DNA of 32,000 nucleotides from Candidatus Electronema aureum (lineage in GTDB: Bacteria > Desulfobacterota > Desulfobulbia > Desulfobulbales > Desulfobulbaceae). The translations under genes and the position numbers were made by a program. Under the pieces are notes generated by a model. That model worked only from the letters and a program-made list of their open reading frames with translations. It had not been told where the DNA came from and searched no databases. This document shows positions 3,993-21,288 of the stretch, in pieces (position 1 is the first letter of the stretch; each line of letters begins with the position of its first letter). The stretch covers positions 1-32,000 of the forward strand of contig NQJD01000027.1 in the NCBI GenBank assembly GCA_004284765.1. The letters are read 5' to 3'.

Positions 3993-4412
3993 TCAATGGA
4001 CAAACAGCATGTTCTGAAACGGATAGGTATTCTTCCAGCGATATGTCCGAAAGTCACGCTGATCAATGCTGAGTATCCTTCCGTCACGCAGCTCTTCTGC
4101 CAAAATGACCAAGGACGCATCCGCCAAATCCATCGGCAGGTCAGCGTATTTTTCCATCAGATTTAGAATAAGGCTGTGATGCTCCTCACGAAGGTCGAAA
4201 ACGATGAAACTCCCTTGACGGAGACTGCGGATGAAACCTAATTCCGCCTCGATTCCCATGCGTTTCAGCAGCAGATGACACGTTTCGGTCAGAACCGGCC
4301 ATGTTGTTATCAGCGGTTCACGCAATCTGCTGAACGCATCTATGGCCACTTGATGATACTTATCGTCGGCATTTACCAAGGCAACCCAGAAGCCTGTGTC
4401 CGCAATAATCAC
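3993..4412 (-). CDS. vapC: PIN-domain ribonuclease toxin VapC
   Basis: The acidic PIN residues are in the expected order: IIADTG, LTETCH, DLADAS, SIDQRDF. The start is GTG and overlaps the upstream stop as GTGA. Confidence 0.9.
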   Translation of the reverse strand: MIIADTGFWVALVNADDKYHQVAIDAFSRLREPLITTWPVLTETCHLLLKRMGIEAELGFIRSLRQGSFIVFDLREEHHSLILNLMEKYADLPMDLADASLVILAEELRDGRILSIDQRDFRTYRWKNTYPFQNMLFVH

Positions 4413-4657
4413 AGCTTATCGCTCCAATCCAATTCGTTCTTGTAATTTTCCGAAAGACTGCTGCCTCCATGCAGACAGCCGACCACGCCGTTCTTGCGGA
4501 AAATCTCCAGCGCATCTTGGCCGACAGCAACTTGATGCCGAGCATACAGCTCGTCAATGGCAAGCTCAAGCACAGTGCGCGCATCTTTTCCCACCGTATG
4601 CTGAAGCTGCTGCAATTTTTCGTAATGCCGATTCCCCAATTCCAGATTGAGCTGCAT
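4409..4657 (-). CDS. vapB: VapB-type antitoxin (family not recognised)
   Basis: The ORF is 82 aa and sits immediately upstream of vapC with a 4-nt GTGA overlap. Size and position are typical of a type II antitoxin. Confidence 0.7.
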   Translation of the reverse strand: MQLNLELGNRHYEKLQQLQHTVGKDARTVLELAIDELYARHQVAVGQDALEIFRKNGVVGCLHGGSSLSENYKNELDWSDKL

Positions 4658-4697
4658 AATTTCCTCCGGTTTCCTTGCTTTCTGTCAGCTCGTTATT

Positions 4698-6674: not shown

Positions 6675-6773
6675 TGAATTAAATACAGTCTATGGTTTTT
6701 TTATGCCAAAAAAGGAAAGTCTTGAGAAGTAAAATTCAGCAAAAATAGAAAATTGATGGAGAGTGCTGCTGTC

Positions 6774-7127
6774 TTATTCAATGGGACATTTATTACCATC
6801 TTTATCAATGCAGACAAACGTGACCATTGTGGAAAATATTTCCGAATCATCAACAGGAAATGCGCTTGCTAAACTGACCTGCACCCGATAGGTGACTGAG
6901 GTTTTCCCTGTTTTCTCTTTCTCCACATTGAACACCAGAATGCTGCCCAGCTCCACTCGTTTCTTGTAGCTTACCTTGTCCATACCAACCGTGACAAAGC
7001 TCTTGCCGGGATGGTCTAATCTGGCGCAGATGTAGGCAGCTTCATCCACCCACTTGAGCAGCACGCCGCCGAACAGGTAGCCGTAGTGATTGAGATGCTC
7101 GGTAAGGACTAACTGGTAATTTTGCAT
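6774..7127 (-). CDS. hot-dog fold acyl-CoA thioesterase (YciA/4HBT-like)
   Basis: The protein is 117 aa. LTEHLNHYGYLFGGVLLKWVDEAA is typical of acyl-CoA thioester hydrolases. Confidence 0.8.
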   Translation of the reverse strand: MQNYQLVLTEHLNHYGYLFGGVLLKWVDEAAYICARLDHPGKSFVTVGMDKVSYKKRVELGSILVFNVEKEKTGKTSVTYRVQVSLASAFPVDDSEIFSTMVTFVCIDKDGNKCPIE

Positions 7128-7160
7128 GAGTGATACTCGCTATTTCTTTCTTCTGCGGAT

Positions 7161-7196
7161 AAAAAAAGGCCGCAGCCAGAAGCCGCAGCCTTTTTT
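7161..7196 (-). terminator. Rho-independent terminator after atpE
   Basis: On the minus-strand RNA, GGCUGCGGC-UUCU-GCUGCGGCC forms a 9-bp stem with two G-U pairs. It is followed by a U7 run (A-run at 7161-7167 on the plus strand). It lies 20 nt after the atpE stop. Confidence 0.7.
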
Positions 7197-7215
7197 GTAA
7201 ACTGACGGAGATGAA

Positions 7216-7479
7216 TCAGCCGCCGATCAGGGCTGCTTTGTACGGGTTAGCGAACAGCAGAATAAAGGCGATAACCAAACCATAGATGGCGATGGACTCA
7301 ATCAGGGCCATGCCGAGGATCATGGTGGTGGTGATCGCTCCTTTGGCCTCCGGGTTGCGGGCAATACCGCTACATGCGCTTTCAACGCCACGGCCCATGC
7401 CGAGAGCAGCAGCAAAACCAGTCAATCCGATGGATGTGGCTGCGGAAAAACATACCAGTGCGAGAGAAATCTTGTCCAT
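7216..7479 (-). CDS. atpE: F0F1 ATP synthase subunit c
   Basis: The 87-aa protein forms a two-helix hairpin: GLTGFAAALGMGRG...ARNPEA...ALIESIAIYGLVIAF, which includes the carboxylate Glu. Confidence 0.95.
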   Translation of the reverse strand: MDKISLALVCFSAATSIGLTGFAAALGMGRGVESACSGIARNPEAKGAITTTMILGMALIESIAIYGLVIAFILLFANPYKAALIGG

Positions 7480-7541
7480 TTTTTACCTCCAAACAGTAAT
7501 AGATAAATAGAGTTGGCCTTCTTCGTAGCTTATAGGAAATT

Positions 7542-8264
7542 TCAGTGGGCGTGTTCCATCGCTCCGACGCAGTAAATGACAGCGAGCAGAACAAAAACAA
7601 CACCCTGAATCAGGGAAACAAGCACACCGAGGCACAGGATGGGCAGTGGCGCAAAAATCGCCCCGACCAGCATGAAAAGAACACCGAGCAATATCTCTTT
7701 TGCTAAAATATTGCCAAAAAGACGCATGGAAAGGGAAACAAGACGAGCAAAGTTGCCGATCAGCTCAAGAATAATCATAAACGGAGCCATAACTGCAATC
7801 GGCCCGGTGAAATGCTTGTAGTATTTCCAACCGTGATAGCGGAAGCCCAGAATATGATGAAGAAGCCAGACAATGATGGTCATGGCGACGGTGATATTGA
7901 GACTGGAGGTGGGCGACATAAAGCCAGGCAGCAGGCCGATCATGTTAGCCAGCACGATGTAAATGAAAAAGGTCGCCAACACCGGGAAGAGCATCCGGGC
8001 TTTTTCGCGGCCCATGTGCTCGGCAAAAAAATCCATTAGCCCACCAATCAGAGCCTCCCAAAAATTCTGGCCAGTGCCTGGCACCAATTCCAATTTGCCT
8101 AAAGTCAGCTTCGGCACTACGAACAGAAAGGCCATGATCAGCCAACTGTAGGTCAGGTAAGGTTCAGTTAGCTTTTCCAGCAGCGTTCCGCCGATCGGCC
8201 CGTGAGGAACCGGTAGTCCGATCCAGTTGAGAATCACCGAGATGAAAAGTATTGGATGTTCCAT
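7542..8264 (-). CDS. atpB: F0F1 ATP synthase subunit a
   Basis: The 240-aa protein is polytopic and carries the conserved SLSMRLFGNILAKE motif with the essential Arg. Confidence 0.95.
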   Translation of the reverse strand: MEHPILFISVILNWIGLPVPHGPIGGTLLEKLTEPYLTYSWLIMAFLFVVPKLTLGKLELVPGTGQNFWEALIGGLMDFFAEHMGREKARMLFPVLATFFIYIVLANMIGLLPGFMSPTSSLNITVAMTIIVWLLHHILGFRYHGWKYYKHFTGPIAVMAPFMIILELIGNFARLVSLSMRLFGNILAKEILLGVLFMLVGAIFAPLPILCLGVLVSLIQGVVFVLLAVIYCVGAMEHAH

Positions 8265-8267
8265 GAC

Positions 8268-8708
8268 CTATGCTCCTTTCGCGTGTTTTCCTGAAAATTC
8301 CATCAAGCCACGGGCTAAGGTAACGAAAATGACGCTGACCATCACCGTGGACAATCCTGCAACTAAACCGATCAGGTGGATGCTGACGCTCATACTCACT
8401 ACGGCCAGCAGCAGTACTAACACCATAAGACGGATATAAAATTTCACTGCGAAGCCTGCTGCTGGTCTCTGGGCATCCGGCAGGGCGATCCTGCTGACAA
8501 TTTGCATCATTGTTCGTTTCAGGGCAAAAAAACTGCCACCGGACAGCGCACCACCGATCAGCACCGACTTGGCGCAATGCCAGCCAGACAGATACCAGCC
8601 AGACAGGGCAAGCAAGACCACGAAGAAGATATTAAATTGCTCGACCGTCCGCAGCAGGGAAAGGTCATCAGCCTGCTTTGCGTCTACGCTGACTGGCTCA
8701 GTCATCAT
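8268..8708 (-). CDS. atpI: ATP synthase subunit I-like membrane protein
   Basis: The 146-aa protein has four hydrophobic helices. It lies directly upstream of atpB and overlaps atpZ by 11 nt. Confidence 0.7.
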   Translation of the reverse strand: MMTEPVSVDAKQADDLSLLRTVEQFNIFFVVLLALSGWYLSGWHCAKSVLIGGALSGGSFFALKRTMMQIVSRIALPDAQRPAAGFAVKFYIRLMVLVLLLAVVSMSVSIHLIGLVAGLSTVMVSVIFVTLARGLMEFSGKHAKGA

Positions 8709-8979
8709 CCTTGGCGATTCTTTGGCTCAAATCCCAGAGATGCTTGAAGCCTGCTAAAATGCCGAAGCCGAGGAAAATGAAACTCAACCAAGGCGTAGTG
8801 CGACCTCCGAAGACTTTGTTGTCCAAATACCAGCCCATGCCGAAACCGATCACCACCGAGAGGGCGAAAGTCATGCCGCTCTGACTGTAGTTTGCCAGAT
8901 CAGAGAGGATGCCTTTTTCCTCTTTCCGCTCCCGATTTGATTGAGTCAATTTGATAGCACGGCGGCGCGGCAAGTGCAA
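8698..8979 (-). CDS. atpZ: AtpZ/AtpI-family small membrane protein
   Basis: The string YSQSGMTFALSVVIGFGMGWYLD...WLSFIFLGFGILAGF gives a two-helix pattern. The start is uncertain because the codon at 8979 is TTG. Confidence 0.65.
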   Translation of the reverse strand: MHLPRRRAIKLTQSNRERKEEKGILSDLANYSQSGMTFALSVVIGFGMGWYLDNKVFGGRTTPWLSFIFLGFGILAGFKHLWDLSQRIAKDDD

Positions 8980-8986
8980 TATTTTT

Positions 8987-10279
8987 CTATGCGGCAGCCA
9001 ATTTTGTCAGCGAGGCGACGGTAGCATCCAGAGCTTTCTGCAAATGCGTACGGTCGTGGGCGGCAGAGACAAAGGCGGCCTCGAACTGCGACGGAGCTAA
9101 CCAGATGCCGCTGGCCAACATCTGCCGGAAATGCTGCCCGTAATGTTCTGTATTCGATTTCATCGCCGATACAAAGTCTGTCACCGGTGCGTCGGTGAAG
9201 AAACAGGTCATCATTGAGCCGATGCGGTTGAGCACCGTCGGCACCGGAGCCGCCGCGCCGATGGCCGCGAGCTTTTCTGCAAACCAGCTGCTCTTCTCCT
9301 CCAGCTCTTCATAAAAACCGGGCCGCCGCACCACCTTGAGCATCGCCAAGCCAGCGGCCATTGCCAGTGGGTTGCCAGACAAGGTGCCTGCCTGATACAC
9401 TGGCCCAACTGGTGAGACCAAATCCATGATCGCTTTCTTGCCGCCATAGGCACCGACCGGCAAACCGCCGCCGATAATCTTGCCGAGACAGGTCAGATCA
9501 GGCAGAATGCCGAAACGCTCCTGCGCTCCGCCCAAGGCCAGCCGGAAGCCGGTGATGACTTCATCAAAAATCAGGACGATGCCCAGCTCGGCGGTCAGCT
9601 CACGCAGCTTGCGCAGAAAAGCCAGCTCCGGCACAATCACGCCCATGTTGCCCGCCACTGGCTCGATGATCACGCAGGCGATATCCAAGCTGGCATCGCG
9701 CAGGGTCTTTTCGAGAATTTCTATGTTGTTGTAGGGAATGGACAGCGTGTTTTTGACAATGTCCTCCGGCACGCCGGGGCTGCCCGGAATGCCAAGCGTG
9801 ATCACCCCGGAACCGGCCTTGACCAAGAAGGAATCCGCATGGCCGTGGTAGCAGCCGTCAAATTTGACGATCACTTTGCGCCCGGTGTAGCCCCGCGCCA
9901 GCCGCACCGCGCTCATGGTGGCTTCGGTGCCGGAGCTGACGAAGCGCACTTTTTCCATTGAGGGCACGGAATCACAGACCAATTCGGCCAGCTCGACCTC
10001 CAGCGCGGTTGGCGCGCCGAAGCTGGTGCCATGAGGCGCGGTTTCGCAGATTGCTTTGATCACTTCAGGATGGCCGTGGCCCAGAATCATCGGTCCCCAC
10101 GAGCCGACAAAATCAATGAATTCGTTGCCGTCCGCATCGGTGATCGTACATCCTTGGGCCTTGGCAACAAAAAGCGGGTCGCAACCCACAGATTTGCAGG
10201 CCCGCACGGGCGAATTCACGCCGCCGGGAATGACTTGGCAGGCTTGGGAGAAAAGAGCGGCGGAGTTTTTGGTCTTCAT
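8987..10279 (-). CDS. hemL: glutamate-1-semialdehyde 2,1-aminomutase
   Basis: The 430-aa protein shows IPGGVNSPVRA, GSWGPMILGH, FDEVITGFR and LGKIIGGGLP (the PLP lysine). Confidence 0.97.
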   Translation of the reverse strand: MKTKNSAALFSQACQVIPGGVNSPVRACKSVGCDPLFVAKAQGCTITDADGNEFIDFVGSWGPMILGHGHPEVIKAICETAPHGTSFGAPTALEVELAELVCDSVPSMEKVRFVSSGTEATMSAVRLARGYTGRKVIVKFDGCYHGHADSFLVKAGSGVITLGIPGSPGVPEDIVKNTLSIPYNNIEILEKTLRDASLDIACVIIEPVAGNMGVIVPELAFLRKLRELTAELGIVLIFDEVITGFRLALGGAQERFGILPDLTCLGKIIGGGLPVGAYGGKKAIMDLVSPVGPVYQAGTLSGNPLAMAAGLAMLKVVRRPGFYEELEEKSSWFAEKLAAIGAAAPVPTVLNRIGSMMTCFFTDAPVTDFVSAMKSNTEHYGQHFRQMLASGIWLAPSQFEAAFVSAAHDRTHLQKALDATVASLTKLAAA

Positions 10280-10612
10280 GAATGATTTCCGGTTCCGGGT
10301 GCTGGTTCAATGATTCCGGGCTTTGCGTCTTGAACTGTCAGCCCCTTGTATGGTAAGCTGCACGGGCAAGGCAGTTCTGAATCAAGGGCTTGCAGGCGGC
10401 TGGTATTTTACCTATCCGCCGTCGCCCGCTGACTATAGCATGTTGCTTTTTCTTCTGTCAAAAATAAAAACGGATTTTTGCTGTTCCCAGCTCTGCTGAG
10501 GAGGGCTGGGATTCGCTTGTCATGGGCAAAGGCACTTTAGTAGAATGATTTTATTTTTTACATGGTTCTCCCTTCAAAAGGAGAAAATATTTTTCATTCA
10601 ATGGAGATTAGC

Positions 10613-10864
10613 ATGAAATTTAAACGTAATGTAGTGTTAGCTGTAAGCATTTTTTCTATAACTGTAGCAGCTGGCCTTGCCATGATAAATCCAGCAGGAG
10701 CTGAAAAGCAAGACGGCAATCAGAAGTATAAATGTGATGGACGCACACACTGCTCGCAGATGACTTCATGTGAAGAGGCAAAATTTTTCATCAAAAATTG
10801 CCCCAACACGAAAATGGATGGAAACAATGATGGTATTCCCTGCGAGAAGCAGTGGTGTAAATAG
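10613..10864 (+). CDS. secreted Excalibur-type calcium-binding domain protein
   Basis: The start is placed at ATG 10613, with GGAG 6 nt upstream. A signal peptide is present (MKFKRNVVLAVSIFSITVAAGLA). The C-terminal CPNTKMDGNNDGIPCEKQWC matches the DxDxDGxxCE-type Excalibur motif. Confidence 0.7.
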   Translation: MKFKRNVVLAVSIFSITVAAGLAMINPAGAEKQDGNQKYKCDGRTHCSQMTSCEEAKFFIKNCPNTKMDGNNDGIPCEKQWCK

Positions 10865-10935
10865 CTAATAGCAATTGGGAAAACTATCTCTGTTTTGTGC
10901 GCTGACAGGGATAGTTCACAATCAAGAGGAATACT

Positions 10936-11400
10936 ATGAAAAAAAACGTTCAACACACCATTGCTGCACTACTGCTAACCTTCCTTTCTTTTTCCTCAGC
11001 GTTGGCGAAATTCGATATTCCTGATTACGTTTATCCTGCCAGCCAGCTCAAAGAAGCGCAGGAAAAGGCGAAAAGCAGTAGAAAGCCCATTGCCTTTGTC
11101 GGCACTGACAAAGAAACTACTTGTCCGATAGCGACAGCAGCCAGCCAAGAGATTTTTCAAGGTCTGAAAGATTCCTGCATTATTGTCTATGTTGAGCAGA
11201 GTGATATCGACAATCTCCCGGACGTTGCAGGAAAGGCTCTGGATTCAGAAGAAGCAGGCAAGTATATTCCCAAAACAGCGGTGGTTAGTGCGGACGCAAG
11301 CACGCTGATCCTCATTCTTCCTGATGCTCAACCGGAGCAGCGGGCGATGAAAATCAAGGAAGCTCAGGGAAAAATCGCCCAGTATATGGCAGAAAAATAA
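10936..11400 (+). CDS. secreted thioredoxin-fold-like protein with a degenerate active site (C-P-I-A)
   Basis: A signal peptide is present (MKKNVQHTIAALLLTFLSFSSALA). FVGTDKETTCPIATAA sits where a CxxC motif would be expected. The family call is tentative. Confidence 0.5.
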   Translation: MKKNVQHTIAALLLTFLSFSSALAKFDIPDYVYPASQLKEAQEKAKSSRKPIAFVGTDKETTCPIATAASQEIFQGLKDSCIIVYVEQSDIDNLPDVAGKALDSEEAGKYIPKTAVVSADASTLILILPDAQPEQRAMKIKEAQGKIAQYMAEK

Positions 11401-11454
11401 TTAACCCTTCTGCCTTTCATCTCACTACAAACACGCATAAAGGAGAACCAGATT

Positions 11455-11784
11455 ATGGCAAGTGACAAAGTTATCAATGTGACAGATAGTTCTTTTGAGA
11501 GTACCGTGATCAACGGCGGACTTCCCTGCCTCGTTGATTTTTGGGCACCGTGGTGCGGCCCCTGTAAGGCCATCGGCCCGGTTATTGATCAGCTCGCTGA
11601 TGAGTTTGACGGCAAAGTAAAGATCGCCAAGATGAATGTGGATGAAAACCCGGAAACCCCGGGTAAATTCAGCATCAGGGCCATCCCGACTCTGATTTTG
11701 TTCAAGAACGGCGAAAAGTTAGACATGATCACCGGTGCAGTGGGCAAAGGCCAGCTGGTGGCTCTGCTCAACAAGGCAGTCTGA
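11455..11784 (+). CDS. trxA: thioredoxin
   Basis: The 109-aa protein contains the DFWAPWCGPCK active site. AAGGAG lies upstream of the ATG. Confidence 0.95.
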   Translation: MASDKVINVTDSSFESTVINGGLPCLVDFWAPWCGPCKAIGPVIDQLADEFDGKVKIAKMNVDENPETPGKFSIRAIPTLILFKNGEKLDMITGAVGKGQLVALLNKAV

Positions 11785-11853
11785 TCGTTTCAGCGGCGCA
11801 GTCTCCGGGGCGTTCCGCGCTCCGGGGGCGAAATTTAATTGCGGAAAATTCTC

Positions 11854-12789
11854 ATGAACAAGCCAGATTATCAGCTGATCATTATCGGCGGTGGCCCTGC
11901 CGGACTGACTGCCGGGCTGTACGCAGCTCGAGGGCGGATCAAAACCCTGCTCATTGAAAAAGGCGCAACCGGTGGCCAAGTGCTGCTCACCGACTGGGTC
12001 GATAATTATCCCGCCTTTCCTGATGGCGTAGCCGGTTTTGAGCTGATAGACAAGATGACCGCCCAAGCTGATCGCTTCGGGCTGGAAAAAAAATTTGCCG
12101 CCGTTGAGTCGCTGGATTTGCAAGCCGAGCTGAAAAGCGTTCGCTTGGATTCTGGCGAACAACTGACTTGTGAGGCGATTATCCTTTGCACCGGAGCCAA
12201 ACCGCGTAAAATCGGTGTACCGGGCGAAGAGGAGCTGCAAGGCAAAGGTGTGTCCTATTGCGCTACCTGCGACGGTCCTTTTTATCGTGATCAGGAAATT
12301 GCGGTGGTGGGTGGCGGTAATACGGCCATTCAGGAAGCGATCCATTTGACTAAATTTGCGAAAAAAGTAACGGTCGTTCACCGCCGCGACACGCTACGAG
12401 CCACGGCCATTTTACAGGAAAAGGCTTTGGCGAACGAAAAAATCAAGTTTATTTGGAACGCTCAGGTGAGCGAAATCATTGGCACGGAGAGCGTCGAGGC
12501 AGTGAATATCCGCTATAACGACGGCTCGACCTCTGTGCTGCCGGTGACAGGAATTTTTGTCCTCATCGGAGTGATGCCTAACAATGAAATCCTGCCGCTG
12601 GAGCAGCTAAAAACCGACGAAGGCGGCTTCTTGATCACGGACAGTGAAATGGGCTGTCTCGACCTGCCGGGCGTATTTGCCGCAGGCGACATCCGCAGCA
12701 AGCTCTTCCGCCAGATTATCAATGCTGCCGGTGAAGGGGCCAACGCCGAACTTTCGGCTGAACATTATCTCGGCACCCGACCGAGCTGA
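11854..12789 (+). CDS. trxB: thioredoxin-disulfide reductase
   Basis: Motifs present are IIGGGPAG, the redox site CATCDG, and GGGNTA. The ATG at 11854 is preferred over the TTG at 11839. Confidence 0.95.
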   Translation: MNKPDYQLIIIGGGPAGLTAGLYAARGRIKTLLIEKGATGGQVLLTDWVDNYPAFPDGVAGFELIDKMTAQADRFGLEKKFAAVESLDLQAELKSVRLDSGEQLTCEAIILCTGAKPRKIGVPGEEELQGKGVSYCATCDGPFYRDQEIAVVGGGNTAIQEAIHLTKFAKKVTVVHRRDTLRATAILQEKALANEKIKFIWNAQVSEIIGTESVEAVNIRYNDGSTSVLPVTGIFVLIGVMPNNEILPLEQLKTDEGGFLITDSEMGCLDLPGVFAAGDIRSKLFRQIINAAGEGANAELSAEHYLGTRPS

Positions 12790-12815
12790 ATATAAAAAAC
12801 ACTCAGGATACCGCC

Positions 12816-13649
12816 ATGCAGACCGCTGTTTCCAAGTACCGCACCACGCAACCGCGTTCCGTTATTTATGTACTTCTCGCCGCCACGTGCCTTTCTCTGA
12901 GCGGCTGCGGCACGGTTAAAGATATGTTCAGCTCTTGGTCGTTCGGCGCGGATAAAGATGAGGCGTTTGAACAGGCGGATACCTTAGCGGCCAAGGGCAT
13001 GGAAGATTACAAGATTGCTAATTATTCGGATGCGCTCAAGTCCTTTCAAAGCATTATTGATCACCACCCGTTTAGCCCACAGGCTCTGTTGGCCGAGCTG
13101 AAGGCCGCAGATTGCCAGTATTACAGCGGTAAATATGCAGAAGCCAAGGAGCTGTACAAAATTTTTGAAGAACGGCATCCTACCAACGAGGCTGTGCCCT
13201 ATGTCATGTTTCAAATTGGGATGTGCGATCTTTCCCGATCCAGCCGAATCGACCGCGATCCTACCGGTGCGCGTGACGCAGTGCAATCTTTTTCCCAGCT
13301 CCTGCGCGTTCATCCTGATTCGCCGTACGCCAGCGAGGCCAAAGCGAGGATACAGGAGGGAAAAGAGTTTATTGCCAGCCACGAGTATTTTGTCGCGGTT
13401 TTTTATGTCCGCACCAGCAAATATGAGCAAGCCCAGCATCGCCTAAAATATTTGATCGCCACCCACCCGGACGCTGCGGTCATTCCTAAGGCCAAAGAGC
13501 TACTGACTAAGTTAGAAGCAGGCAAGCCGCCCAAATGGGGCATAGAAAAATGGTTGCCAGATTGGCAGCTGCCGGACTGGGGCTGGTGGAAAAAGGGCAA
13601 GGACGTGGTCGAGGAAACCGGCAAAGAGGCGGAGAAATCCGCCCAATAA
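12816..13649 (+). CDS. bamD: outer-membrane assembly lipoprotein BamD/YfiO
   Basis: The lipobox LSLSGC is present. TPR-like repeats follow, with DALKSFQSIIDHHPFSPQA and YFVAVFYVRTSKYEQA typical of BamD. Confidence 0.85.
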   Translation: MQTAVSKYRTTQPRSVIYVLLAATCLSLSGCGTVKDMFSSWSFGADKDEAFEQADTLAAKGMEDYKIANYSDALKSFQSIIDHHPFSPQALLAELKAADCQYYSGKYAEAKELYKIFEERHPTNEAVPYVMFQIGMCDLSRSSRIDRDPTGARDAVQSFSQLLRVHPDSPYASEAKARIQEGKEFIASHEYFVAVFYVRTSKYEQAQHRLKYLIATHPDAAVIPKAKELLTKLEAGKPPKWGIEKWLPDWQLPDWGWWKKGKDVVEETGKEAEKSAQ

Positions 13650-13667
13650 CGGAGCGGGACGACATTT

Positions 13668-15482
13668 ATGGGCTTCCTTGACAGCGAAGAGCTGCTTGAG
13701 CTGCTGCTGCGGCAACGGCTGATCAACGAGCAGCAGAAACAATTTGTCCTCCGCAACAAGGAGCGACAAACGCAGTTGCTGCTCAAGCAACAGGGGATGC
13801 AGAAGCCCGGTAGTGGCCCGGCGGGTCGGGGTTATCCTGACATGGTAGATATTGTAGCTTCCATGAAGCTGGAAATGCCGGGCGGCAAAAAGAAAATTCT
13901 CACTGAAGAGACCGTGATGCGGACGGTCGCTCATCACCTCAGCATCCCCTTTAAAAAACTTGACCCGCTGGAGTTGGATATTGAAATCGTCACCAAAACG
14001 ATTCCCCGTTCCTTTGCCATTAGCCATTTGATTCTGCCTTTTGAAGTCCGCAACGGCGTTCTTCAAGTTGTCACCTATGACCCGGAAAATAAAAGTGCGC
14101 TGGAAGACATTGAGCAAGTCAACCAGATCAAGGTTAATCCTTGGTTAAGTACCCGCAGTGATATTAAGAAAATCCTGTCGGAGTTTTTCGGTTTTCAACA
14201 GTCAATCACCGCAGCGGAAAGTCAGTTCAGTGGAAGTGGTGTCAGCGCAGCGGTCGATATCGGCAATTTGGAGCAGTATGTTAAACTCTCCAGCACCGAA
14301 ATCAGCTCAACTGATCAGCACATCAAGGCGGCAGTCAATCATCTTTTCAAATATGCCATTGATCAGCGAGCCAGTGATATTCATATTGAGCCGAAACGCG
14401 ATTGCTGCATGATCCGCTACCGGATCGACGGCATTCTCCATACCATCTACAAGCTGCCAAAGGCTGTGCATTCGGCCATCAGTTCGCGAATCAAAACCTT
14501 AGCTCGCTTAGACATCGCCGAAAAACGGCGGCCTCAGGACGGCAGAATCAAGATCAGCCAGCAGGACGGTAAAGAAGTCGAGCTACGTGTTTCGACTATT
14601 CCGGTCTCTTTTGGTGAAAAGACGGTTATGCGTATTCTTGATTCCAGCGTGATCTTTCAAGACTTAGACGAAATTGGCTTTTCTAAACGAGATCGAGCGG
14701 TTTATGATTCCTTCATGAAAGCTCATCACGGCATTGTCCTTGTCACTGGCCCGACCGGCAGCGGTAAATCCACCACGCTTTATTCCACCCTCAAGAAAAT
14801 TGCCACGCCGGAAATCAACATCATTACGGTGGAAGACCCAGTGGAAATGGTGCATGAAGAATTCAATCAAATATCTGTGCAACCACAGATTGATGTCACT
14901 TTTTCTACTATTCTTCGGCATATCCTCCGCCAAGACCCTGATGTGATTATGATCGGCGAGATACGCGACCTCGCCACCGCCACCCACGCGGTACAGGCCG
15001 CCCTGACCGGTCATCTCGTTTTTTCTACCCTCCACACCAACGATGCAGTTTCCACGGTCATCCGTTTGCAAGACCTTGGTCTTGAGCCATTTTTAGTCGC
15101 TTCTACCATGCTCGGTGCCTTGGCCCAGCGTTTGGTACGCAAAATCTGCCCGCATTGCATTGAAGGCTATCAGGCCGATTTTGCTGAATTGCAGCGGATG
15201 GGCTTTCCGGTTTCTGGTGAAGGCACGATTGAACTCAAGCGCGGTAAAGGCTGCAAAGAATGTCGGAAGACCGGTTATGCAGGTCGGATGGGAATTTTTG
15301 AGATATTTCCTATGTCCGACAAGATCAAAAAGTTGATCACGGAAAAGGCTTCTGATGCCGAGCTGCGGCAAGTCGCTATCCGCGAAGGAATGACCACGCT
15401 CAACGAAGATGCTTGGCAAAAAGTGAAGAATGGCCTGACCACAGTGGAAGAAGCGAGACGAGTCTGCGGGGCAGATGCCTGA
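13668..15482 (+). CDS. GspE/PilB-family secretion ATPase
   Basis: There is a T2SSE N-terminal domain and Walker A GPTGSGKST. Asp/His boxes are present (IMIGEIRD, TGHLVFSTLHTN). The tetracysteine CPHC...CKEC is also present. Confidence 0.92.
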   Translation: MGFLDSEELLELLLRQRLINEQQKQFVLRNKERQTQLLLKQQGMQKPGSGPAGRGYPDMVDIVASMKLEMPGGKKKILTEETVMRTVAHHLSIPFKKLDPLELDIEIVTKTIPRSFAISHLILPFEVRNGVLQVVTYDPENKSALEDIEQVNQIKVNPWLSTRSDIKKILSEFFGFQQSITAAESQFSGSGVSAAVDIGNLEQYVKLSSTEISSTDQHIKAAVNHLFKYAIDQRASDIHIEPKRDCCMIRYRIDGILHTIYKLPKAVHSAISSRIKTLARLDIAEKRRPQDGRIKISQQDGKEVELRVSTIPVSFGEKTVMRILDSSVIFQDLDEIGFSKRDRAVYDSFMKAHHGIVLVTGPTGSGKSTTLYSTLKKIATPEINIITVEDPVEMVHEEFNQISVQPQIDVTFSTILRHILRQDPDVIMIGEIRDLATATHAVQAALTGHLVFSTLHTNDAVSTVIRLQDLGLEPFLVASTMLGALAQRLVRKICPHCIEGYQADFAELQRMGFPVSGEGTIELKRGKGCKECRKTGYAGRMGIFEIFPMSDKIKKLITEKASDAELRQVAIREGMTTLNEDAWQKVKNGLTTVEEARRVCGADA

Positions 15483-15640
15483 TAGGACTTGAAGCTGCAC
15501 GCTCTTCCTTCTTTCCGCTGCACTTTGCTGTTGCTTTTCAAGCAGTCAGCAGTAAAATGCTTTTCTTTGCGAAAGCAAAACGGCAGGTTCTGCCGCACCG
15601 ATTCAACAATGTAGAGTTCTTATCCGAGGAGAATGCAGCC

Positions 15641-16810
15641 ATGAAGCCCCGATTTGTCTTGCCCGCCGTTGTTTCTTTATTATGCGGCTTATCCGCAGCG
15701 CAGGCCCATGAGCTGCCCGAAGGCGCGGCTCCTTTAGAAAAATCCGAGCAGTGCGCTGCCTGCCACCCGACGATCTTCCAAGAATGGCAGGAGTCGTTCC
15801 ACGCCAAGTCCTCTGTGCATAAGGATTCAGCACACAAAGCCATGCATCAAGCCTTTAGCAAGGCGATGATCGCGAAGGGGCAGAAGGCTAATTATCACTG
15901 CGCTACCTGCCATGCGCCGATGTCGGATAACCTGAAAGCCCTGATGAGCGGCGAGGCCGAGCCGGACAGCAGTAATACAACGCAGGTAGAAGGTGTGGGT
16001 TGTACGTTCTGTCACCGCATCGAGGCGGTCAACAAGGGCAAGAGCTTTGATCAGTACACCTTGAGCAAGGAAGGTGCGTATCATACCAGTCGTCCGGCTA
16101 ACAAGAAGGCCCCGCACCAGACCGCAACATCGCCGCTGTTTACTGATGGCCAAGTCTGCATGGGCTGCCACAGTCAGTATGTCAACCCGCACGAGGTGCC
16201 AGTTTGCGTGATGACTGAAGAAGGCAAGGGCAACTGTATCTCGTGTCACATGTCGCCAGCAGAAGGTAGCCCAGCAGTAGGATCAGCAGTCAAGACGCAT
16301 TTTTCTCATCGGTTTCCGGGCGGTCATGATCAAGACATCCTCCAGAAAGCAGCTGCTTTGGAAGTGAAGATCGAGACCAAGGGCAAAGAGCGCAGCATCT
16401 CTGTGGCGATTAAAAACACCACGGAACACACCTTCCCTTCGACCAACCCGATGCGGATGGCCTTTGTCAAGGTGCGGGCGAAGGATAAGAAGGGCGCGGT
16501 GATCTGGGAGAACTTCAAGGCAGACCCTCTGCAAGAGGACAAGCAGGCCGTGTTCTTCAAAGCCTTTAAGGCCGGTGAGAAGGTGGGCGTGCCGTCTTGG
16601 GAGGCTGAAGCTATGGCCTTTGACACCCGACTAAAGACCGGCGAGACCCGCACGCTGACCTATCCGCTCTATAGCCCGGCCATCAGTGAGGTGGAGGTGG
16701 AGCTGTTCTACCTGCTCTTTCCGCCCAAGGCAATTGAGGGTTTTGGTATTCCCAAAGACGGGGTGAACGACAAACGCTACTCCGTGGCGAAGAAGTCGGT
16801 GAAGATGTAA
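15641..16810 (+). CDS. periplasmic pentahaem c-type cytochrome with C-terminal beta-rich domain
   Basis: The start is ATG 15641, with GAGGAG upstream, and a signal peptide follows. Five CxxCH motifs are present: CAACH, CATCH, CTFCH, CMGCH and CISCH. Confidence 0.9.
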   Translation: MKPRFVLPAVVSLLCGLSAAQAHELPEGAAPLEKSEQCAACHPTIFQEWQESFHAKSSVHKDSAHKAMHQAFSKAMIAKGQKANYHCATCHAPMSDNLKALMSGEAEPDSSNTTQVEGVGCTFCHRIEAVNKGKSFDQYTLSKEGAYHTSRPANKKAPHQTATSPLFTDGQVCMGCHSQYVNPHEVPVCVMTEEGKGNCISCHMSPAEGSPAVGSAVKTHFSHRFPGGHDQDILQKAAALEVKIETKGKERSISVAIKNTTEHTFPSTNPMRMAFVKVRAKDKKGAVIWENFKADPLQEDKQAVFFKAFKAGEKVGVPSWEAEAMAFDTRLKTGETRTLTYPLYSPAISEVEVELFYLLFPPKAIEGFGIPKDGVNDKRYSVAKKSVKM

Positions 16811-16826
16811 GAGGTCTCTATAAGCA

Positions 16827-16848
16827 GGGCAGACACAGGGGTCTGCCC
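16827..16848 (+). terminator. possible terminator hairpin after the cytochrome gene
   Basis: GGGCAGAC-acaggg-GTCTGCCC forms a perfect 8-bp GC-rich stem 17 nt after the stop. There is no clear T-tract. Confidence 0.3.
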
Positions 16849-17050
16849 CTGAGATCTTTAACCTTGATCGCAAGCAACGGCGGCTGGCCGCTGCGTTTCT
16901 CGAAAGAAATGCCTTTCGGGTGGAGCTACTACCCAACGCCTTTGAATGTGAGAAATGGTAGTATTGTATATATGGATTTACATAGTGAAAAAATATAAAG
17001 CTGAAAAGAAATACTGAAAATTTCTTCTAATATTTAACACATACCATTTA

Positions 17051-17389
17051 ATGGAGATGGATATAAAGAAAACAATGATTGCAATTTTATGTTTATCAGT
17101 TATTTTTTTCTCAGTCGCCAATCTATTTGCCTTTGAAGATATCACTACAAAAATTAAAAAAGCTTATACTAATGAAGAAGGTGCGCTTCTTATACAGGCT
17201 GAAGCGGCAAATGGTTCACCCGATGGCTGGCTGAAAGTTGGCAGCAACAATCTGGTCAGCAATCCTGCGGCCCGTATGATGTATGCCACCGCACTTATTG
17301 CATTGACCACAGGTAAAACATGTTGGGTACGAATTATTCCAACCGCTGAAGGGTACTGGGTTGCGGACAGAATATCGATCAACCAGTAA
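17051..17389 (+). CDS. small secreted protein, paralogue 1 (unknown family)
   Basis: The 112-aa protein has a signal peptide (IAILCLSVIFFSVANLFA). It lies in an AT-rich patch and resembles the next ORF in its C-terminal half. Confidence 0.6.
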   Translation: MEMDIKKTMIAILCLSVIFFSVANLFAFEDITTKIKKAYTNEEGALLIQAEAANGSPDGWLKVGSNNLVSNPAARMMYATALIALTTGKTCWVRIIPTAEGYWVADRISINQ

Positions 17390-17459
17390 TCGAAAATGTT
17401 GGGGGATTATTTCGCTCTCTTTAGCTTACTGAACTTCAAACAATGCGGAGGATAAATTC

Positions 17460-17810
17460 ATGAAATGGTATTGTCTTGCAGCTCTTATGGTGCTATGCCA
17501 AATATCTCAAGCAAAAGCTGAAGTTATTTTAGTGACAGGTGCGAAAATTATTTTCTATGCCCAAAGTCATTCTGACAGCGATGCCCATATGATTCAATCA
17601 AATATAGGGATTTACAAAGGAGGAGATCATCCATCGTGTATAAACAATCGTCTATATATAGATTTTACAGACAAGGAAATAATTGCAACCGCTATGGCGG
17701 CTTCTCTTGCTAACAAATCTGTTAGCTTTCTGTACGATGATGCCGCTGCAAGTAAACAAATGACAGGACACGCAATTAATAATTGTAGGGTGTTCAGTAT
17801 ATGGCAGTAG
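17460..17810 (+). CDS. small secreted protein, paralogue 2 (unknown family, two Cys)
   Basis: The 116-aa protein has a signal peptide (MKWYCLAALMVLCQISQAKA). GGAGG lies upstream of the ATG. ATAMAASLANKSVSF...RVFSIWQ parallels ATALIALTTGKTCWV...DRISINQ in the previous ORF. Confidence 0.6.
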   Translation: MKWYCLAALMVLCQISQAKAEVILVTGAKIIFYAQSHSDSDAHMIQSNIGIYKGGDHPSCINNRLYIDFTDKEIIATAMAASLANKSVSFLYDDAAASKQMTGHAINNCRVFSIWQ

Positions 17811-17888
17811 CCCTTTGATCAGCAAGAGCCGCTTGGCCGGGAAGATGCAGGGGCGTAATGAGCATAAAAATCAAACACGGTGTCAATC

Positions 17889-18146
17889 ATGCCGGTCATT
17901 TCCATGTTTTACGGAATCATCATCCGCATGTATCTGCTTGACAACAAGCATCACAATATTCCGCATGTTCATGCTGAATACGAGGCTTCCATCAGCATTG
18001 CCGACGGCGAGGTGCTTGCAGGGCAGCTTCCTCGAAAGCAGCTCAGGCTGGTGCAGGCGTGGATTGAGCTGCGCCGTGACGAGCTGACGGCGGACTGGGA
18101 GCTTGCCCTCAGTGATGAAAAGCCGTATAAAATTGCTCCGTTGTGA
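17889..18146 (+). CDS. DUF4160-family protein
   Basis: MPVISMFYGIIIRMYLLDNKHHNIPHVHAEY is the characteristic DUF4160 N-terminus. The start is trimmed to that Met. Confidence 0.85.
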   Translation: MPVISMFYGIIIRMYLLDNKHHNIPHVHAEYEASISIADGEVLAGQLPRKQLRLVQAWIELRRDELTADWELALSDEKPYKIAPL

Positions 18147-18152
18147 GATGCC

Positions 18153-18395
18153 ATGCACTGGGACGTGAAATTTGTTCAGCCTCTTGAAGAGTACCAAATT
18201 TATGTTGAGCTGGAAAACAGCCGGAAAGGAATCTTCGACATGAAGCCCTACCTGCATCGCGGTGTCTTTCAGGAACTCCGAGATGTGCATTATTTCAACC
18301 AAGTCGGCATCCTGTTCGGAGCCGTTACATGGCCAAACGAGCAGGACATCGCCCCGGAAACCCTGCTGGCGGAGATGGTTCAGGCGGATACATAG
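18153..18395 (+). CDS. DUF2442-family protein
   Basis: The 80-aa ORF starts 6 nt after the DUF4160 gene. VKFVQPLEEYQIYVELENSRKGIFDMKPYL...GAVTWPNEQDIAPETL is a DUF2442-like pattern. DUF4160 and DUF2442 usually occur as a pair. Confidence 0.85.
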   Translation: MHWDVKFVQPLEEYQIYVELENSRKGIFDMKPYLHRGVFQELRDVHYFNQVGILFGAVTWPNEQDIAPETLLAEMVQADT

Positions 18396-18509: not shown

Positions 18510-18761
18510 ATGAACAAAACCGCGACAGTACGCGCCCGCCTTGCCCCTGATTTGAAAGATCGGGTTCCGCCAGCTCGGTCTGACCACCACCCAAGCCATC
18601 ACCATATTCTACAAACAGGTTGAACAACGAAACGGGTTGCCGTTTAATCTTGTCCTGCCAAACGCAACCACACGCCAGACCTTTGACGACACAGATGCTG
18701 GGCGTGTGATCTGATTGTCTGCGAGAATGCCGACGATATGTTCAGCAAGCTGGGCATCTGA
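18510..18761 (+). pseudogene. DinJ/RelB-family antitoxin pseudogene (two frameshifts, small internal deletion)
   Basis: AAGGAG precedes the ATG at 18510. Frame 1 reads MNKTATVRARLAPDLKDR. Frame 2 reads RQLGLTTTQAITIFYKQVEQRNGLPFNLVLPN...DAGRVI*. Frame 3 reads DLIVCENADDMFSKLGI*. Together these recapitulate a DinJ-like protein. Confidence 0.6.
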
Positions 18762-18766
18762 TGCTG

Positions 18767-18788
18767 ACCCCTGCGAATTCGCAGGGGT
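18767..18788. repeat. perfect 22-bp palindrome centred on GAATTC
   Basis: ACCCCTGCGAATTCGCAGGGGT is an exact reverse-complement palindrome. It sits between the two antitoxin remnants. Confidence 0.9.
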
Positions 18789-18909
18789 TGACCGCTACGA
18801 CTTTTTAGAAGCCTGCCGCCAGCACCGCATTGATGTCGTTGACTATGACCCGGATGAACTGGAGACAGATTTCGCCGCGCTGATCAAAGGGAACGCGGCA
18901 TCATGCTGA
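18781..18909 (+). pseudogene. UPF0175-type antitoxin C-terminal fragment
   Basis: AGVDRYDFLEACRQHRIDVVDYDPDELETDFAALIKG resembles the C-terminal half of UPF0175 antitoxins. The N-terminal half is absent. The stop overlaps (ATGCTGA) a 12-codon stub where the PIN-like partner would start. Confidence 0.4.
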
Positions 18910-18984: not shown

Positions 18985-19083
18985 GTAGGGTGGGCAAACG
19001 GTTTTATCGTTTGCCCACGCGGAAGCTGATATAAATTGGTGGCAAGCAAAAAGACGTTTGCCCATCCTACGGTACTACGGTAC
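18985..19083. repeat. REP-like inverted repeats (GTAGGRTGGGCAAACG units) plus a TACGGTAC x2 tandem
   Basis: GTGGGCAAACG (18990-19000) and CGTTTGCCCAC (19008-19018) form a perfect 11-bp hairpin with a 7-nt loop. A third inverted copy, CGTTTGCCCATCCTAC, is at 19055-19070. TACGGTAC occurs twice in tandem at 19068-19083. Confidence 0.6.
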
Positions 19084-19123: not shown

Positions 19124-21070
19124 ATGAATCCTCTTGACGACCTTCCGCAACGCCATAATTCTCACGATACTGGAGAAGCGGCAGAAACTGCTTTCCGAAA
19201 TGCTGTCAATAATCTGAATTATTTTGTTATCCAACGGGAAGACCGCAATGACTATGGAACAGATATTCAGATAGAAGCTCGCAAAGGCGACGCAATGACG
19301 AATATCCGTGTCCATGTTCAATTGAAGGGTACAGAGTCAACTACAAACAAAGATGATTCGGTCAGTATTTCAGTTGAACGCACGAATCTGAATTATCTTT
19401 TGGCACAACCAAATTCAGTTTACGTTTGTTATCATCTCCCTTCCAAGCGGTTGTTGGTTCGTTATGCAGAAGATGTTTACCGCGAATATGAACATCGTGG
19501 CGGAGCTTGGATGCAACAGAGTAATTTAACAGTACGCTTCTTTCAACCATTTGACGAACATTTTCAGCAGCAGCTCAATGCACGGGTCATTGCTTCTGGA
19601 ACAGCAGGAAGAGACAGGCGGCTTCTGTGGACAGGTACACCTCCTGATAAACTCTCGGCTTTAGTCCAGAGATCGAATGAGGTCATTGAAGTGCCTGTTG
19701 ACGAAGAACAGGCATTGAAGGTGCTTGAAGAGCTTTATGAGGTTGGCAAAGATAGCACAATCAGTAATTGTTTTGATCAGTTTGCTGCCGTGCTCGGTTC
19801 CGTCCCGCACGGAATGCTTTTTGCTTATTTGGCAGAAATCAACTTGGGGATTAATGCAATTCCATTCGACAGAGATAGGATTATCGAAGGAGTTAAGTTT
19901 CTTGATGAAATGATCGAGAAGCAAGAAGGACATCCTGGCTCAATCTTTTATTGCATAGGTAATGCAGGATTAGCTTTAGGTAATTATGAAATGGCTCAGG
20001 CTGCTTATTATAACGCTTTAAAATTGCTGCGTGTTACTCCTGAAACATATGAATTAGCAGCCAGATGCTGCAAGAATTGGGGGAGTGTCTTGAAAAAGAT
20101 TTCGAGAATGCACGAGGCCCGTAATGCCTATGAAGGAGCATTAAAATTTGATCCTGATTTAGGGGAAGCGCATTTGGCTCTTGGTCTCTGGCACCGTCAG
20201 CATGGAAATATATCTTTGGCATTAAAACATCTTGATAACGTAATTCAACAGAGCAATTCTGCTGTGCAGATGTCCACAGTGCATGGCTGGAGGATGACTC
20301 TGTTCTTTGAAAGCGGGGATACTGAAGGAGCATTCCGGGAAATAAACAATCTGATCGGCGAGGCTAAACAACATGAATGGATTTGGCCATGCTGTGCAAG
20401 GCATGTCGCTCAATTTGGTGTAACATCTGCTGACTCTGCTCGAAAGGCTCTTATATTCTGGCGGCAGTATCTTCGTGAACACCCAAAGTATAGTCGTGCT
20501 GAACGGGAACGTTTGCTCTGTAATTGGTATTTACACTCACGGGGAGCACCTTGTGAAATTGACTTTCAAGGATTCAAGACCGCAGTTGTCCAGTTGATAG
20601 AGAATGGCGATTCATCACCTGCATTTTTATGGGACAGAATAGGGCACTTTGCTCAAGATGACGGTGACTGGGAAGAAGCTGAACAGGCTTACCGGAAGGC
20701 ATACCAAATAGAACCTGAACGATACGGTTATTGTTTGGGAACAGCATTAAATCTTCTTCGTCGCTACAGCGAAGCTCTTCCCATTCTGCTTCCTCAAGCC
20801 GAGCAGCATCTTCCTGACGCTATGAGTTGGTTTCAGGTGGCACAGGCACGCGGAGGCGTTGGCGACATCGAAGGTTGTATTTCTGCGTATGAGAAGGCTA
20901 TAGAGCTTGATGACAGTTATGACCTTGCTTGGTTCAATCTCGGCGGCGTTTATTGGAACAACCGGCAGACAGAAAAAGCTGGTGAGATATGGAGAGAAGC
21001 GGTGAGACGTTTTCCAAATCATGAAATAGCCAAGAAGCTTCTCCAAGATTTGCTCAGTAGATCGGCCTGA
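19124..21070 (+). CDS. DUF4365 (PD-(D/E)xK-like nuclease fold) N-terminal domain fused to a long TPR array
   Basis: The protein is 648 aa. The N-terminus reads GEAAETAF...NDYGTDIQIEARKG...VHVQLKG...NLNYLL...VYVCY, which fits the DUF4365 pattern. The C-terminal ~400 aa contain multiple TPR-like units (AYYNALKL, AYEGALKFDPDLGEAHLALG, AYRKAYQIEPE, AYEKAIELDDSYDLAWFNLG). Confidence 0.8.
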   Translation: MNPLDDLPQRHNSHDTGEAAETAFRNAVNNLNYFVIQREDRNDYGTDIQIEARKGDAMTNIRVHVQLKGTESTTNKDDSVSISVERTNLNYLLAQPNSVYVCYHLPSKRLLVRYAEDVYREYEHRGGAWMQQSNLTVRFFQPFDEHFQQQLNARVIASGTAGRDRRLLWTGTPPDKLSALVQRSNEVIEVPVDEEQALKVLEELYEVGKDSTISNCFDQFAAVLGSVPHGMLFAYLAEINLGINAIPFDRDRIIEGVKFLDEMIEKQEGHPGSIFYCIGNAGLALGNYEMAQAAYYNALKLLRVTPETYELAARCCKNWGSVLKKISRMHEARNAYEGALKFDPDLGEAHLALGLWHRQHGNISLALKHLDNVIQQSNSAVQMSTVHGWRMTLFFESGDTEGAFREINNLIGEAKQHEWIWPCCARHVAQFGVTSADSARKALIFWRQYLREHPKYSRAERERLLCNWYLHSRGAPCEIDFQGFKTAVVQLIENGDSSPAFLWDRIGHFAQDDGDWEEAEQAYRKAYQIEPERYGYCLGTALNLLRRYSEALPILLPQAEQHLPDAMSWFQVAQARGGVGDIEGCISAYEKAIELDDSYDLAWFNLGGVYWNNRQTEKAGEIWREAVRRFPNHEIAKKLLQDLLSRSA

Positions 21071-21129: not shown

Positions 21130-21288
21130 ATGTCCAGAACGATTACATTGGAACTTCCAGACGATATTTATCTTGCCTTGCAAAGAATGGCTGAAAAACG
21201 AGGAAAGAATATCAGCCAGATTGTTCTTGAATTGATAAAAAACATGCTGGCAGAAGATCAATTGCTGCAAGCAATCCCCACGAACTAA
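21130..21288 (+). CDS. small ribbon-helix-helix (CopG/antitoxin-like) protein, 52 aa
   Basis: This ORF is not in the track because it is shorter than 60 aa. AGGAG lies 6 nt before ATG 21130. The translation is MSRTITLELPDDIYLALQRMAEKRGKNISQIVLELIKNMLAEDQLLQAIPTN, a strand-helix-helix pattern typical of RHH antitoxins. Confidence 0.55.
   Translation: MSRTITLELPDDIYLALQRMAEKRGKNISQIVLELIKNMLAEDQLLQAIPTN

Follow-up and report, generated by a model that had tools for sequence, protein, structure and literature searches.

Among described bacterial defense systems, the closest counterpart to the nuclease considered here is DREN, a domain of the DUF4365 family that serves, joined to APAZ, as the effector of the short prokaryotic Argonaute systems known as SPARDA. 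Its output is non-specific DNA degradation, which leads to cell death or dormancy. In both NbaSPARDA and XauSPARDA, isolated DREN is monomeric and inactive and becomes active only as a tetramer, which forms on the Argonaute filament and thereby creates both a pocket for DNA and an active site capable of catalysis; in apo XauSPARDA, DREN is fixed in a 'closed' orientation in which its active site is not competent. Here, a domain of this type is described in a different protein, encoded at 19124..21070 (+ strand) of a 32,000-nucleotide stretch of DNA from the cable bacterium Candidatus Electronema aureum (Desulfobacterota; GenBank assembly GCA_004284765.1, contig NQJD01000027.1, positions 1 to 32,000; hereafter the window). 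The 648 residues of this protein comprise a DUF4365 (DREN) domain, a helical linker and a solenoid of TPR-like repeats.

Effectors are combined with sensors in several further systems. In Avs proteins, the sensor binds phage proteins: TPR sensors tetramerize upon binding terminase or capsid protein, and tetramerization assembles the nuclease. Vulcan (WP_050009967.1) is a single protein in which an NADase of the NIR/DUF4062 family is joined to C-terminal HEAT repeats; it has been shown experimentally to act against phage by abortive infection, the trigger being a small lambda protein (bioRxiv 10.64898/2026.09.04.749371). DUF4062, renamed NIR, is identified in three 2026 preprints as a TIR-like NADase that acts as the effector in anti-phage systems, and the immune systems that carry it include portal-activated Swarozyc, Evangelion and Avs2 variants in addition to Vulcan. 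Dsr1, HEPN fusions with the Avs7 sensor, and Upx recognize core phage proteins. Divona, a single-protein anti-phage system from Vibrio integron cassettes, combines DUF4365 with a crr6-like domain, and thus DUF4365 works as a defense effector outside Argonaute systems as well.

The 648-residue protein very probably has a role in defense, be it anti-phage or anti-plasmid. The explanation that we favor as a whole, with confidence slightly above even, is that it is a stand-alone, single-polypeptide immune protein, horizontally acquired, in which a sensor would drive the assembly of DREN domains with an abortive outcome. An earlier note on this DNA, made from the sequence alone, had proposed a nuclease effector fused directly to a repeat sensor without a STAND ATPase, an architecture typical of conflict systems, and its author knew of no characterized defense system of this kind. 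Both statements find support: the same repeat module also carries a DUF4062 NADase in a sister clade, PADLOC v2 holds no model spanning the full-length protein, and no description of the DUF4365–TPR architecture was found in the literature, also under other names.

A DREN-type nuclease domain

The gene is complete from its ATG start to the stop codon, and its product is 100% identical to a public database record ('MAG: Tetratricopeptide repeat-containing protein [Candidatus Electronema aureum]'). According to Pfam, PADLOC and Foldseek, residues 12–139 (19157..19540, + strand) form a PD-(D/E)xK nuclease domain of the DUF4365/DREN type. PF14280 (DUF4365) matches residues 19–118 (E = 3.3e-16; 60.0 bits, gathering cutoff 24.3), and PADLOC profiles of an Argonaute-associated restriction endonuclease and of PDC-M02A match at the N-terminus. 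The strings in which the earlier note had recognized DUF4365 and a restriction-endonuclease-like fold (GEAAETAF, NDYGTDIQIEARKG and VHVQLKG) are all present. A separate model of the N-terminal domain (predicted local distance difference test score (pLDDT) 87.5) displays an alpha/beta architecture, and its best 15 Foldseek matches in the PDB are all DREN-APAZ chains, drawn from three SPARDA systems (including 9qcc, 9qbp, 9jt2 and 9vx6; template-modeling (TM) score 0.57–0.71, E = 3.6e-7 to 1.9e-3). Weaker fold matches to the PD-(D/E)xK nucleases D212, MspJI and I-Ssp6803I rank after these chains. Sequence searches of the PDB with the same domain, whether run with one sequence or with a profile of 25, found nothing; the DREN relationship is therefore visible only by fold search.

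The putative catalytic core consists of D43, D47 (with E51) and Q66-x-K68 (19250..19327, + strand), as judged by conservation and spacing. All four residues (D43, D47, Q66 and K68) are invariant across 116/116 aligned homologs, in line with the active-site pattern that had been read from the single sequence. Their spacing is 4/19/2, compared with 4/21/2 for E37/D41/Q62/K64 in XauSPARDA, where nuclease activity is significantly lower in E37A and lost altogether in D41A, Q62A and K64A. By its Pfam score, its DREN fold and its conserved (E/D)-x3-D...Q-x-K residues, the effector belongs to the DUF4365/DREN family, and the N-terminal domain is predicted to have metal-dependent nuclease activity.

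The linker and the TPR solenoid

In an AlphaFold2 model of the full-length protein, built from the 116 homologs (mean pLDDT 93.9, predicted TM score (pTM) 0.82), all residues past 145 are helical. Residues 145–270 (19556..19933, + strand) form a non-TPR linker of seven helices, from a long first helix (145–171) to the last one (250–265), which includes both the point at which effectors are exchanged (see below) and a conserved AEINLG motif (residues 237–242). The TPR-like solenoid follows (residues 271–647; 19934..21064, + strand) and comprises 21 helices, arranged as about ten hairpins and a capping helix; this unit count had been left to be made in the earlier note. In Pfam, TPR_1/2/8/11/12/14/16/19 matches extend from residue ~276 to 642. 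Foldseek with the full-length model retrieved the TPR superhelices of OGT and SPINDLY, and full-length fold searches against the PDB and viral models gave generic TPR superhelices only. Neither Walker A nor Walker B motifs are present in the 648 residues, nor does any NTPase (nucleoside triphosphatase) family of Pfam or NCBIfam match them. The description of everything past the nuclease as TPR-like repeats without an NTPase motif thus stands, with the refinement that the linker is helical without being TPR. The solenoid is presumed to be the sensor or assembly module.

Conservation peaks in two places, in the nuclease core (residues 41–120) and, unexpectedly, in the C-terminal TPRs (residues 501–580). 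The most conserved part of the solenoid, residues 496–640 (20609..21043, + strand), has the highest majority fraction of all regions (0.715) and contains the motifs WDRxGHxxQ, (Y/F)GYCLG, SWFQVA and AWFNLGG, which are common to the nuclease and NADase clades. The least conserved segment of the protein is in the linker region (residues 141–200), and the middle of the solenoid is also low.

The same module carries a second effector

Residues 140–648 alone were searched exhaustively against 1.84 billion representatives, yielding 113 matches at E ≤ 1e-30. Besides the family of ~650 residues, these include a clade of proteins of 599–638 residues with 28–33% identity, in which the match starts deeper in the module. 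DUF4062 was found at the N-terminus of 20 of the 28 remote members scanned (E down to 1e-21) and DUF4365 in six, and the catalytic glutamate of DUF4062 is kept in 21/21 members having the domain. The window protein aligns with a DUF4062 member over residues 187–648 (33% identity, E = 1e-67), with nothing similar before residue 187, and both a consensus and a pairwise alignment indicate that the DUF4062 clade keeps the motifs AE(I/V)NLG, WDRxGH, (Y/F)GYCLG, SWFQVA and AWFNLGG. No third type of effector was detected on the module among ten further matches with odd offsets that were scanned; among the odd-offset matches, DUF4365 was present in nine, a 282-residue fragment matched no family and a 404-residue fragment matched TPR families only.

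That homologous repeat modules carry two suicide effectors unrelated to each other is what would be expected of an immune sensor. Tentatively, the linker and TPRs (~460 residues) may constitute an NTPase-free sensing and assembly switch that drives either a DREN DNase, by tetramerization, or a TIR-like NADase, by oligomerization.

Plasmids were also searched with a protein of the DUF4062 clade (P0164). Its C-terminal part matches DUF4365–TPR genes, and no full-length DUF4062–TPR copy was found in this search; the sole Enterobacter match is a DUF4365-type gene, reached via the common C-terminal module. Staphylococcus plasmids accounted for 175/230 records matched, and these matches are assumed to be due to the DUF4062 head. 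A protein-database search with P0164 named no Enterobacter member of the DUF4062–TPR clade.

Distribution and mobility of the family

A database search with the 648-residue protein returned at least 200 full-length homologs, and more than 200 database clusters are full-length homologs with 43–78% identity and ~645–675 residues, all combining DUF4365 with TPRs. Family proteins are named 'TPR protein' in RefSeq. A pattern scan of 185,579 genomes, one per species, gave 234 matching stretches, and in 175 of these a relative was confirmed; since the scan demands two peptide patterns, this number is a lower bound (at least 175 species genomes). The species relatives listed belong to the Desulfobacterota, Alpha-, Beta- and Gammaproteobacteria, Planctomycetota, Gemmatimonadota, Latescibacterota, Rhodothermales, Nitrospirales and Myxococcota. 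The family is rare and patchy, and its architecture is fixed. The closest relative (78% identity) lies in a different locus, next to an Eco57I-type methylase and a specificity gene.

Full-length copies are found on 11 plasmids, six of which are from Klebsiella, and 8 of the 12 plasmid records with a match are typed as conjugative; among 50,697 phage records, no match to the family was obtained. In E. coli, a chromosomal copy is present in 3 of 5,426 complete genomes (hits H13–H15), with 98.6% identity to a Klebsiella plasmid gene, and the homologs in K. pneumoniae include WP_306589217.1 (a plasmid protein) and WP_048295727.1. At three homolog loci (L082:10001-11221, L083 and L045; L numbers designate individual loci) the family gene is truncated or split, which is consistent with frequent decay of accessory defense genes.

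Genomic neighborhoods of homologs

No conserved neighbor was found across 84 homolog loci; the commonest, a tyrosine integrase, occurs at 12 loci at most. When all ORFs of at least 35 residues within 2 kb were considered (phmmer, E ≤ 10), no ribbon–helix–helix (RHH) relative and no conserved small ORF was present near any of these loci. The family has no obligatory partner gene.

Recurrent neighbors include type I restriction–modification (R-M) genes, among which a Septu PtuA/PtuB pair is embedded, as well as Avs2, insertion sequence (IS) transposases and a ResIII/Helicase_C protein; type ISP and Eco57I-type R-M systems are also represented. At L009, L011 and L078 (about 4600–18200 in each), the family gene lies between PtuB and HsdR, forming a composite island in which PtuA/PtuB and the family gene are inserted inside a type I R-M locus (HsdM, HsdS ... 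HsdR). At L004, type I R-M genes adjoin the family gene and the PtuAB pair is absent. The HsdR of L011 ends in a Peptidase_S24 domain (E = 1.1e-6), an unusual fusion. Single loci contain an MmeI-type enzyme with GmrSD, a NERD-helicase between integrases, and VapBC-like and HipA genes, and plasmid copies adjoin AAA+HNH pairs, AIPR, DUF3800, IS110 and VapBC.

Among the 108 nearest substantial ORFs from 27 independent loci, the Pfam families found most often are ResIII (8), DEAD (8), SWI2_SNF2 (6), Phage_integrase (6), HSDR_N (3), N6_N4_Mtase (3), DUF4238 (2), AAA_21 (2), Fic (2) and PIN (2), and no housekeeping family recurs. Such neighborhoods, defensive or mobile rather than housekeeping, are the signature of mobile single-gene defense cargo, a point on which the earlier note had made its reading depend.

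Two neighboring genes stand at fixed distances in part of the family. In seven genomes from different genera (L043:9300-9986, L044:9354-9986, L046, L059, L064, L067 and L077), a protein of ~210 residues without Pfam or PADLOC matches is encoded 2–3 nucleotides upstream of the family gene. It was considered as a partner of the family and rejected: it is absent from the other loci, and its copies are ~90% identical across genera, which suggests one recently spread two-gene element. At four alphaproteobacterial loci (L024, L027, L030 and L034; about 2600–9950), a ResIII/Helicase_C protein of ~1,100 residues with weak PADLOC matches to PbeA and a type IV restriction endonuclease is encoded exactly 50 nucleotides upstream on the same strand, and may be a lineage-specific companion.

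The locus in Candidatus Electronema aureum

Within the window, the gene is held by a low-GC insert of ~4.4 kb bordered by a multiheme cytochrome gene and pheA. Its GC content is 0.447, and 0.376 at third codon positions (GC3), compared with GC contents of 0.519 and 0.595 in the adjacent blocks; GC3 of the flanking genes is 0.559 (GspE-like), 0.774 (pheA) and 0.714 (ABC-F). The base composition of the ORF is foreign, its low GC content having been noticed by eye before, and the gene is horizontally acquired.

The same insert contains a DUF4160/DhiT-like gene (17880-18146; 88 residues; NCBIfam toxin_DhiT 82 bits, under the cutoff of 100) and, after a gap of 6 nucleotides, a DUF2442 gene (18153-18395; 80 residues). 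This pair (17880-18395) is apparently intact and is probably a type II toxin–antitoxin (TA) module. Another DUF4160 gene is found close to a Klebsiella plasmid homolog (L087:93-470). Between the pair and the 648-residue ORF lie a frameshifted DinJ/RelB-like antitoxin frame (~18510-18714), with MNKTATVRARLAPDLK... in one frame and ...LGLTTTQAITIFYKQVEQRNGLPFNLVLPN... in another, whose family was called by reading the translation and not by a tool, and a UPF0175 fragment (18715-18909) that also matches the PADLOC candidate PDC-S70 (E = 2.6e-7); the segment ~18510-18909 consists of decayed TA remnants. Downstream, a 52-residue RHH (CopG-like) gene (21130-21288, + strand; RHH_1 E = 5.6e-5, 23.4 bits, cutoff 20.5) begins 59 nucleotides past the stop codon and ends 9 nucleotides before the start of pheA. 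This orphan, which has no toxin partner, could be another piece of TA debris or act as a local regulator. The setting amid TA genes and TA debris and the tiny RHH gene 59 nucleotides downstream are therefore as the earlier note had described them.

Upstream of the gene, a 21-nucleotide inverted repeat (18985-19070; 86% complementary, arms 44 nucleotides apart) encloses a perfect 11-nucleotide hairpin and two direct copies of CGTTTGCCCA, and stops 54 nucleotides 5' of the start codon; it may serve as an operator or as an upstream terminator, or be an element similar to repetitive extragenic palindromes (REP-like). A promoter scan found no sigma-70-like promoter upstream of the gene, and the number of sites in a promoter and terminator scan around it was not above that in shuffled sequence.

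Elsewhere in the window, two small ORFs (112 and 116 residues) with hydrophobic N-termini occupy the low-GC left edge of the insert (17051-17810; GC about 0.40), neither having a significant Pfam match. Two neighboring minus-strand ORFs of 540 and 210 residues, overlapping by 7 nucleotides (1706-3954; GC 0.37–0.40), have no Pfam match at E ≤ 1e-5 and may be another acquired cassette. The segment 25832-30896 (GC 0.30–0.45) resembles a variable locus for surface polysaccharides, containing genes for a family-2 glycosyltransferase and three S-adenosylmethionine (SAM) methyltransferases together with a polysaccharide flippase-like gene.

Proposed mechanism and alternative explanations

In the mechanism that we propose, the C-terminal helical/TPR module would act as the sensor, binding an invader protein (from a phage or plasmid) or responding to a state that the invader causes. 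Binding would shift the assembly state, most likely by gathering four copies of the protein. The DREN (DUF4365) domains, idle as monomers, would upon assembly become a non-specific, Mg2+/Mn2+-dependent DNase, and degradation of both invader and host DNA would result in death or dormancy, that is, abortive infection. The linker and TPR module is proposed as the trigger because, with no Argonaute, APAZ, NTPase or partner gene, nothing else is left to control the nuclease. Assembly of DREN is proposed by analogy with the Avs TPR sensors, minus the NTPase, and Vulcan, Dsr1 and Upx indicate that an NTPase is dispensable in effector–repeat designs. The chances that this specific assembly mechanism is the correct one are about even.

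Several considerations weigh against this explanation. The function of the family is a prediction; the neighborhood counts stand without a formal background control; and the match to the SPARDA catalytic residues is one of spacing and shared Pfam family, without residue-level superposition. The genomic contexts of the DUF4062 clade are less clearly defensive, with polysaccharide clusters beside Dam methylase, type ISP R-M and integrase genes. That the C-terminal TPRs are the most conserved is unusual for a sensor engaged in an arms race; conservation of the solenoid is just as compatible with a conserved target, with a host 'guardee' or with a surface for self-assembly as with a sensor of phage proteins. 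Finally, a pTM of 0.82 suggests that nuclease and solenoid are fixed relative to each other in the monomer, and thus release of intramolecular inhibition, rather than oligomerization, could be the switch.

This last point leads to an alternative with the same immune role, in which the solenoid would autoinhibit a monomeric nuclease and a ligand would free the nuclease by a conformational change without higher-order assembly. The defined relation between nuclease and solenoid implied by the full-length model would suit such a mechanism, as would the 'closed' DREN of apo XauSPARDA and the behavior of Upx, an NTPase-less nuclease sensor that is monomeric when apo and whose oligomerization is unproven. 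However, DREN isolated from either of the two SPARDA systems studied has no activity although it is free of the rest of the protein, and it must be a tetramer to bind and cut DNA; release alone is therefore not expected to suffice, and we consider this alternative unlikely, if worth keeping in view. Somewhat less probable again is a guard-type mechanism, in which the conserved C-terminal TPRs would hold a host protein or complex and the nuclease would fire once an invader modifies or displaces that factor. Conservation of residues 496–640 across phyla and in both effector clades is unusual in view of fast-evolving phage proteins and speaks for a host partner, and Avs7 provides a precedent by co-opting host EF-Tu. 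Yet Avs sensors, which can be conserved as well, read the shape of conserved phage folds (terminase, portal and capsid), the same conservation equally fits a self-assembly interface, and no candidate host partner is co-encoded at the 84 loci.

Explanations outside immunity fare worse. The protein might be a nuclease of DNA repair or recombination, or a modification-dependent (type IV, Mrr-like) enzyme with the TPRs as a scaffold: DUF4365 is an Mrr-like PD-(D/E)xK family, MspJI is among the weaker fold matches, and the gene often adjoins R-M genes. We regard this as improbable, given that the Pfam scan revealed no Mrr_cat, winged-helix or other domain that binds DNA or reads its modification, the remainder being TPR, and that the distribution is rare, patchy and mobile with no recurrent housekeeping neighbor found; exchange for an NADase, moreover, would make no sense for a DNA-specific enzyme, whereas it is typical of abortive-infection sensors. 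Very improbable, finally, is a TA toxin with the downstream 52-residue RHH protein as its antitoxin or repressor, an idea suggested by the short distance, the shared strand and the abundance of TA genes at the locus. The co-occurrence of the two genes that the earlier note had thought worth looking for did not materialize, the RHH gene recurring at 0/84 homolog loci; the relative of 78% identity has other neighbors, and the plasmid and E. coli copies also have no RHH gene. As a partner of the TPR protein, the RHH gene, unique to this locus when set against the 84 homolog loci, is effectively refuted at the level of the family.

Should the favored explanation, sensor-driven DREN assembly in a stand-alone immune protein, be true, the family would represent an uncharacterized single-gene immune family spread across many bacterial phyla and conjugative Klebsiella plasmids, and the SPARDA nuclease would be a plug-in effector outside Argonaute systems. 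The nuclease and NADase clades would then offer a natural protein pair, with one sensor and two alternative outputs, for studying how effectors are triggered without an NTPase. If the reading of the linker and TPRs as a switch is also true, activation of DREN by induced assembly would be a general principle beyond Argonaute systems, and the family would be a minimal 'Avs without the ATPase' whose conserved C-terminal TPRs read a very conserved target of invader or host. Its compact size and the homologs in E. coli and Klebsiella make the family directly testable.

Comparison with known systems

The window protein shares with SPARDA its DUF4365/DREN effector, for which SPARDA chains are the best fold matches and whose catalytic tetrad is equivalent by spacing; by analogy, an assembly-gated, non-specific DNase output would be expected here too. 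By contrast, it has no APAZ, Argonaute partner or nucleic-acid guide, with a helical linker and TPRs in their place, and no Piwi/Argonaute family is found among the scanned neighbors in the window or among the 25 commonest families of the 108 nearest neighbors of homologs. Avs proteins, in particular Avs2 with Mrr-like nuclease effectors, also combine an N-terminal nuclease effector with a C-terminal TPR-like sensor, but the window protein lacks the STAND NTPase between them (no Walker A or B motif, all-helical past residue 145), and no PADLOC Avs model matches it.

Vulcan resembles the window protein in that one gene encodes an effector at the N-terminus joined directly to helical repeats, with no NTPase, a comparison of design only; the sister clade bears the same DUF4062 effector, with its conserved glutamate, whereas the window protein carries a nuclease (DUF4365) and not an NADase. 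Dsr1, the HEPN fusions that share the Avs7 sensor, and Upx are likewise NTPase-less single proteins made up of an effector and a large sensor. Their effectors, however, are SIR2, HEPN or a C-terminal PD-(D/E)xK domain, their sensors are different and much larger, and no sequence relationship to them was detected with PADLOC models. Divona shares DUF4365 but differs in the partner domain, which is crr6-like in Divona and TPR in the window protein, where Pfam crr6 (PF08847) gives no match.

For SPARDA, Avs, Dsr, Divona and TA toxins alike, the window protein thus misses a defining feature and belongs to none of them. The design itself, an effector and repeats in a single protein without an NTPase, has precedents, and descriptions of many families of this sort are appearing; what this family contributes to it is a DREN nuclease together with a natural NADase counterpart.

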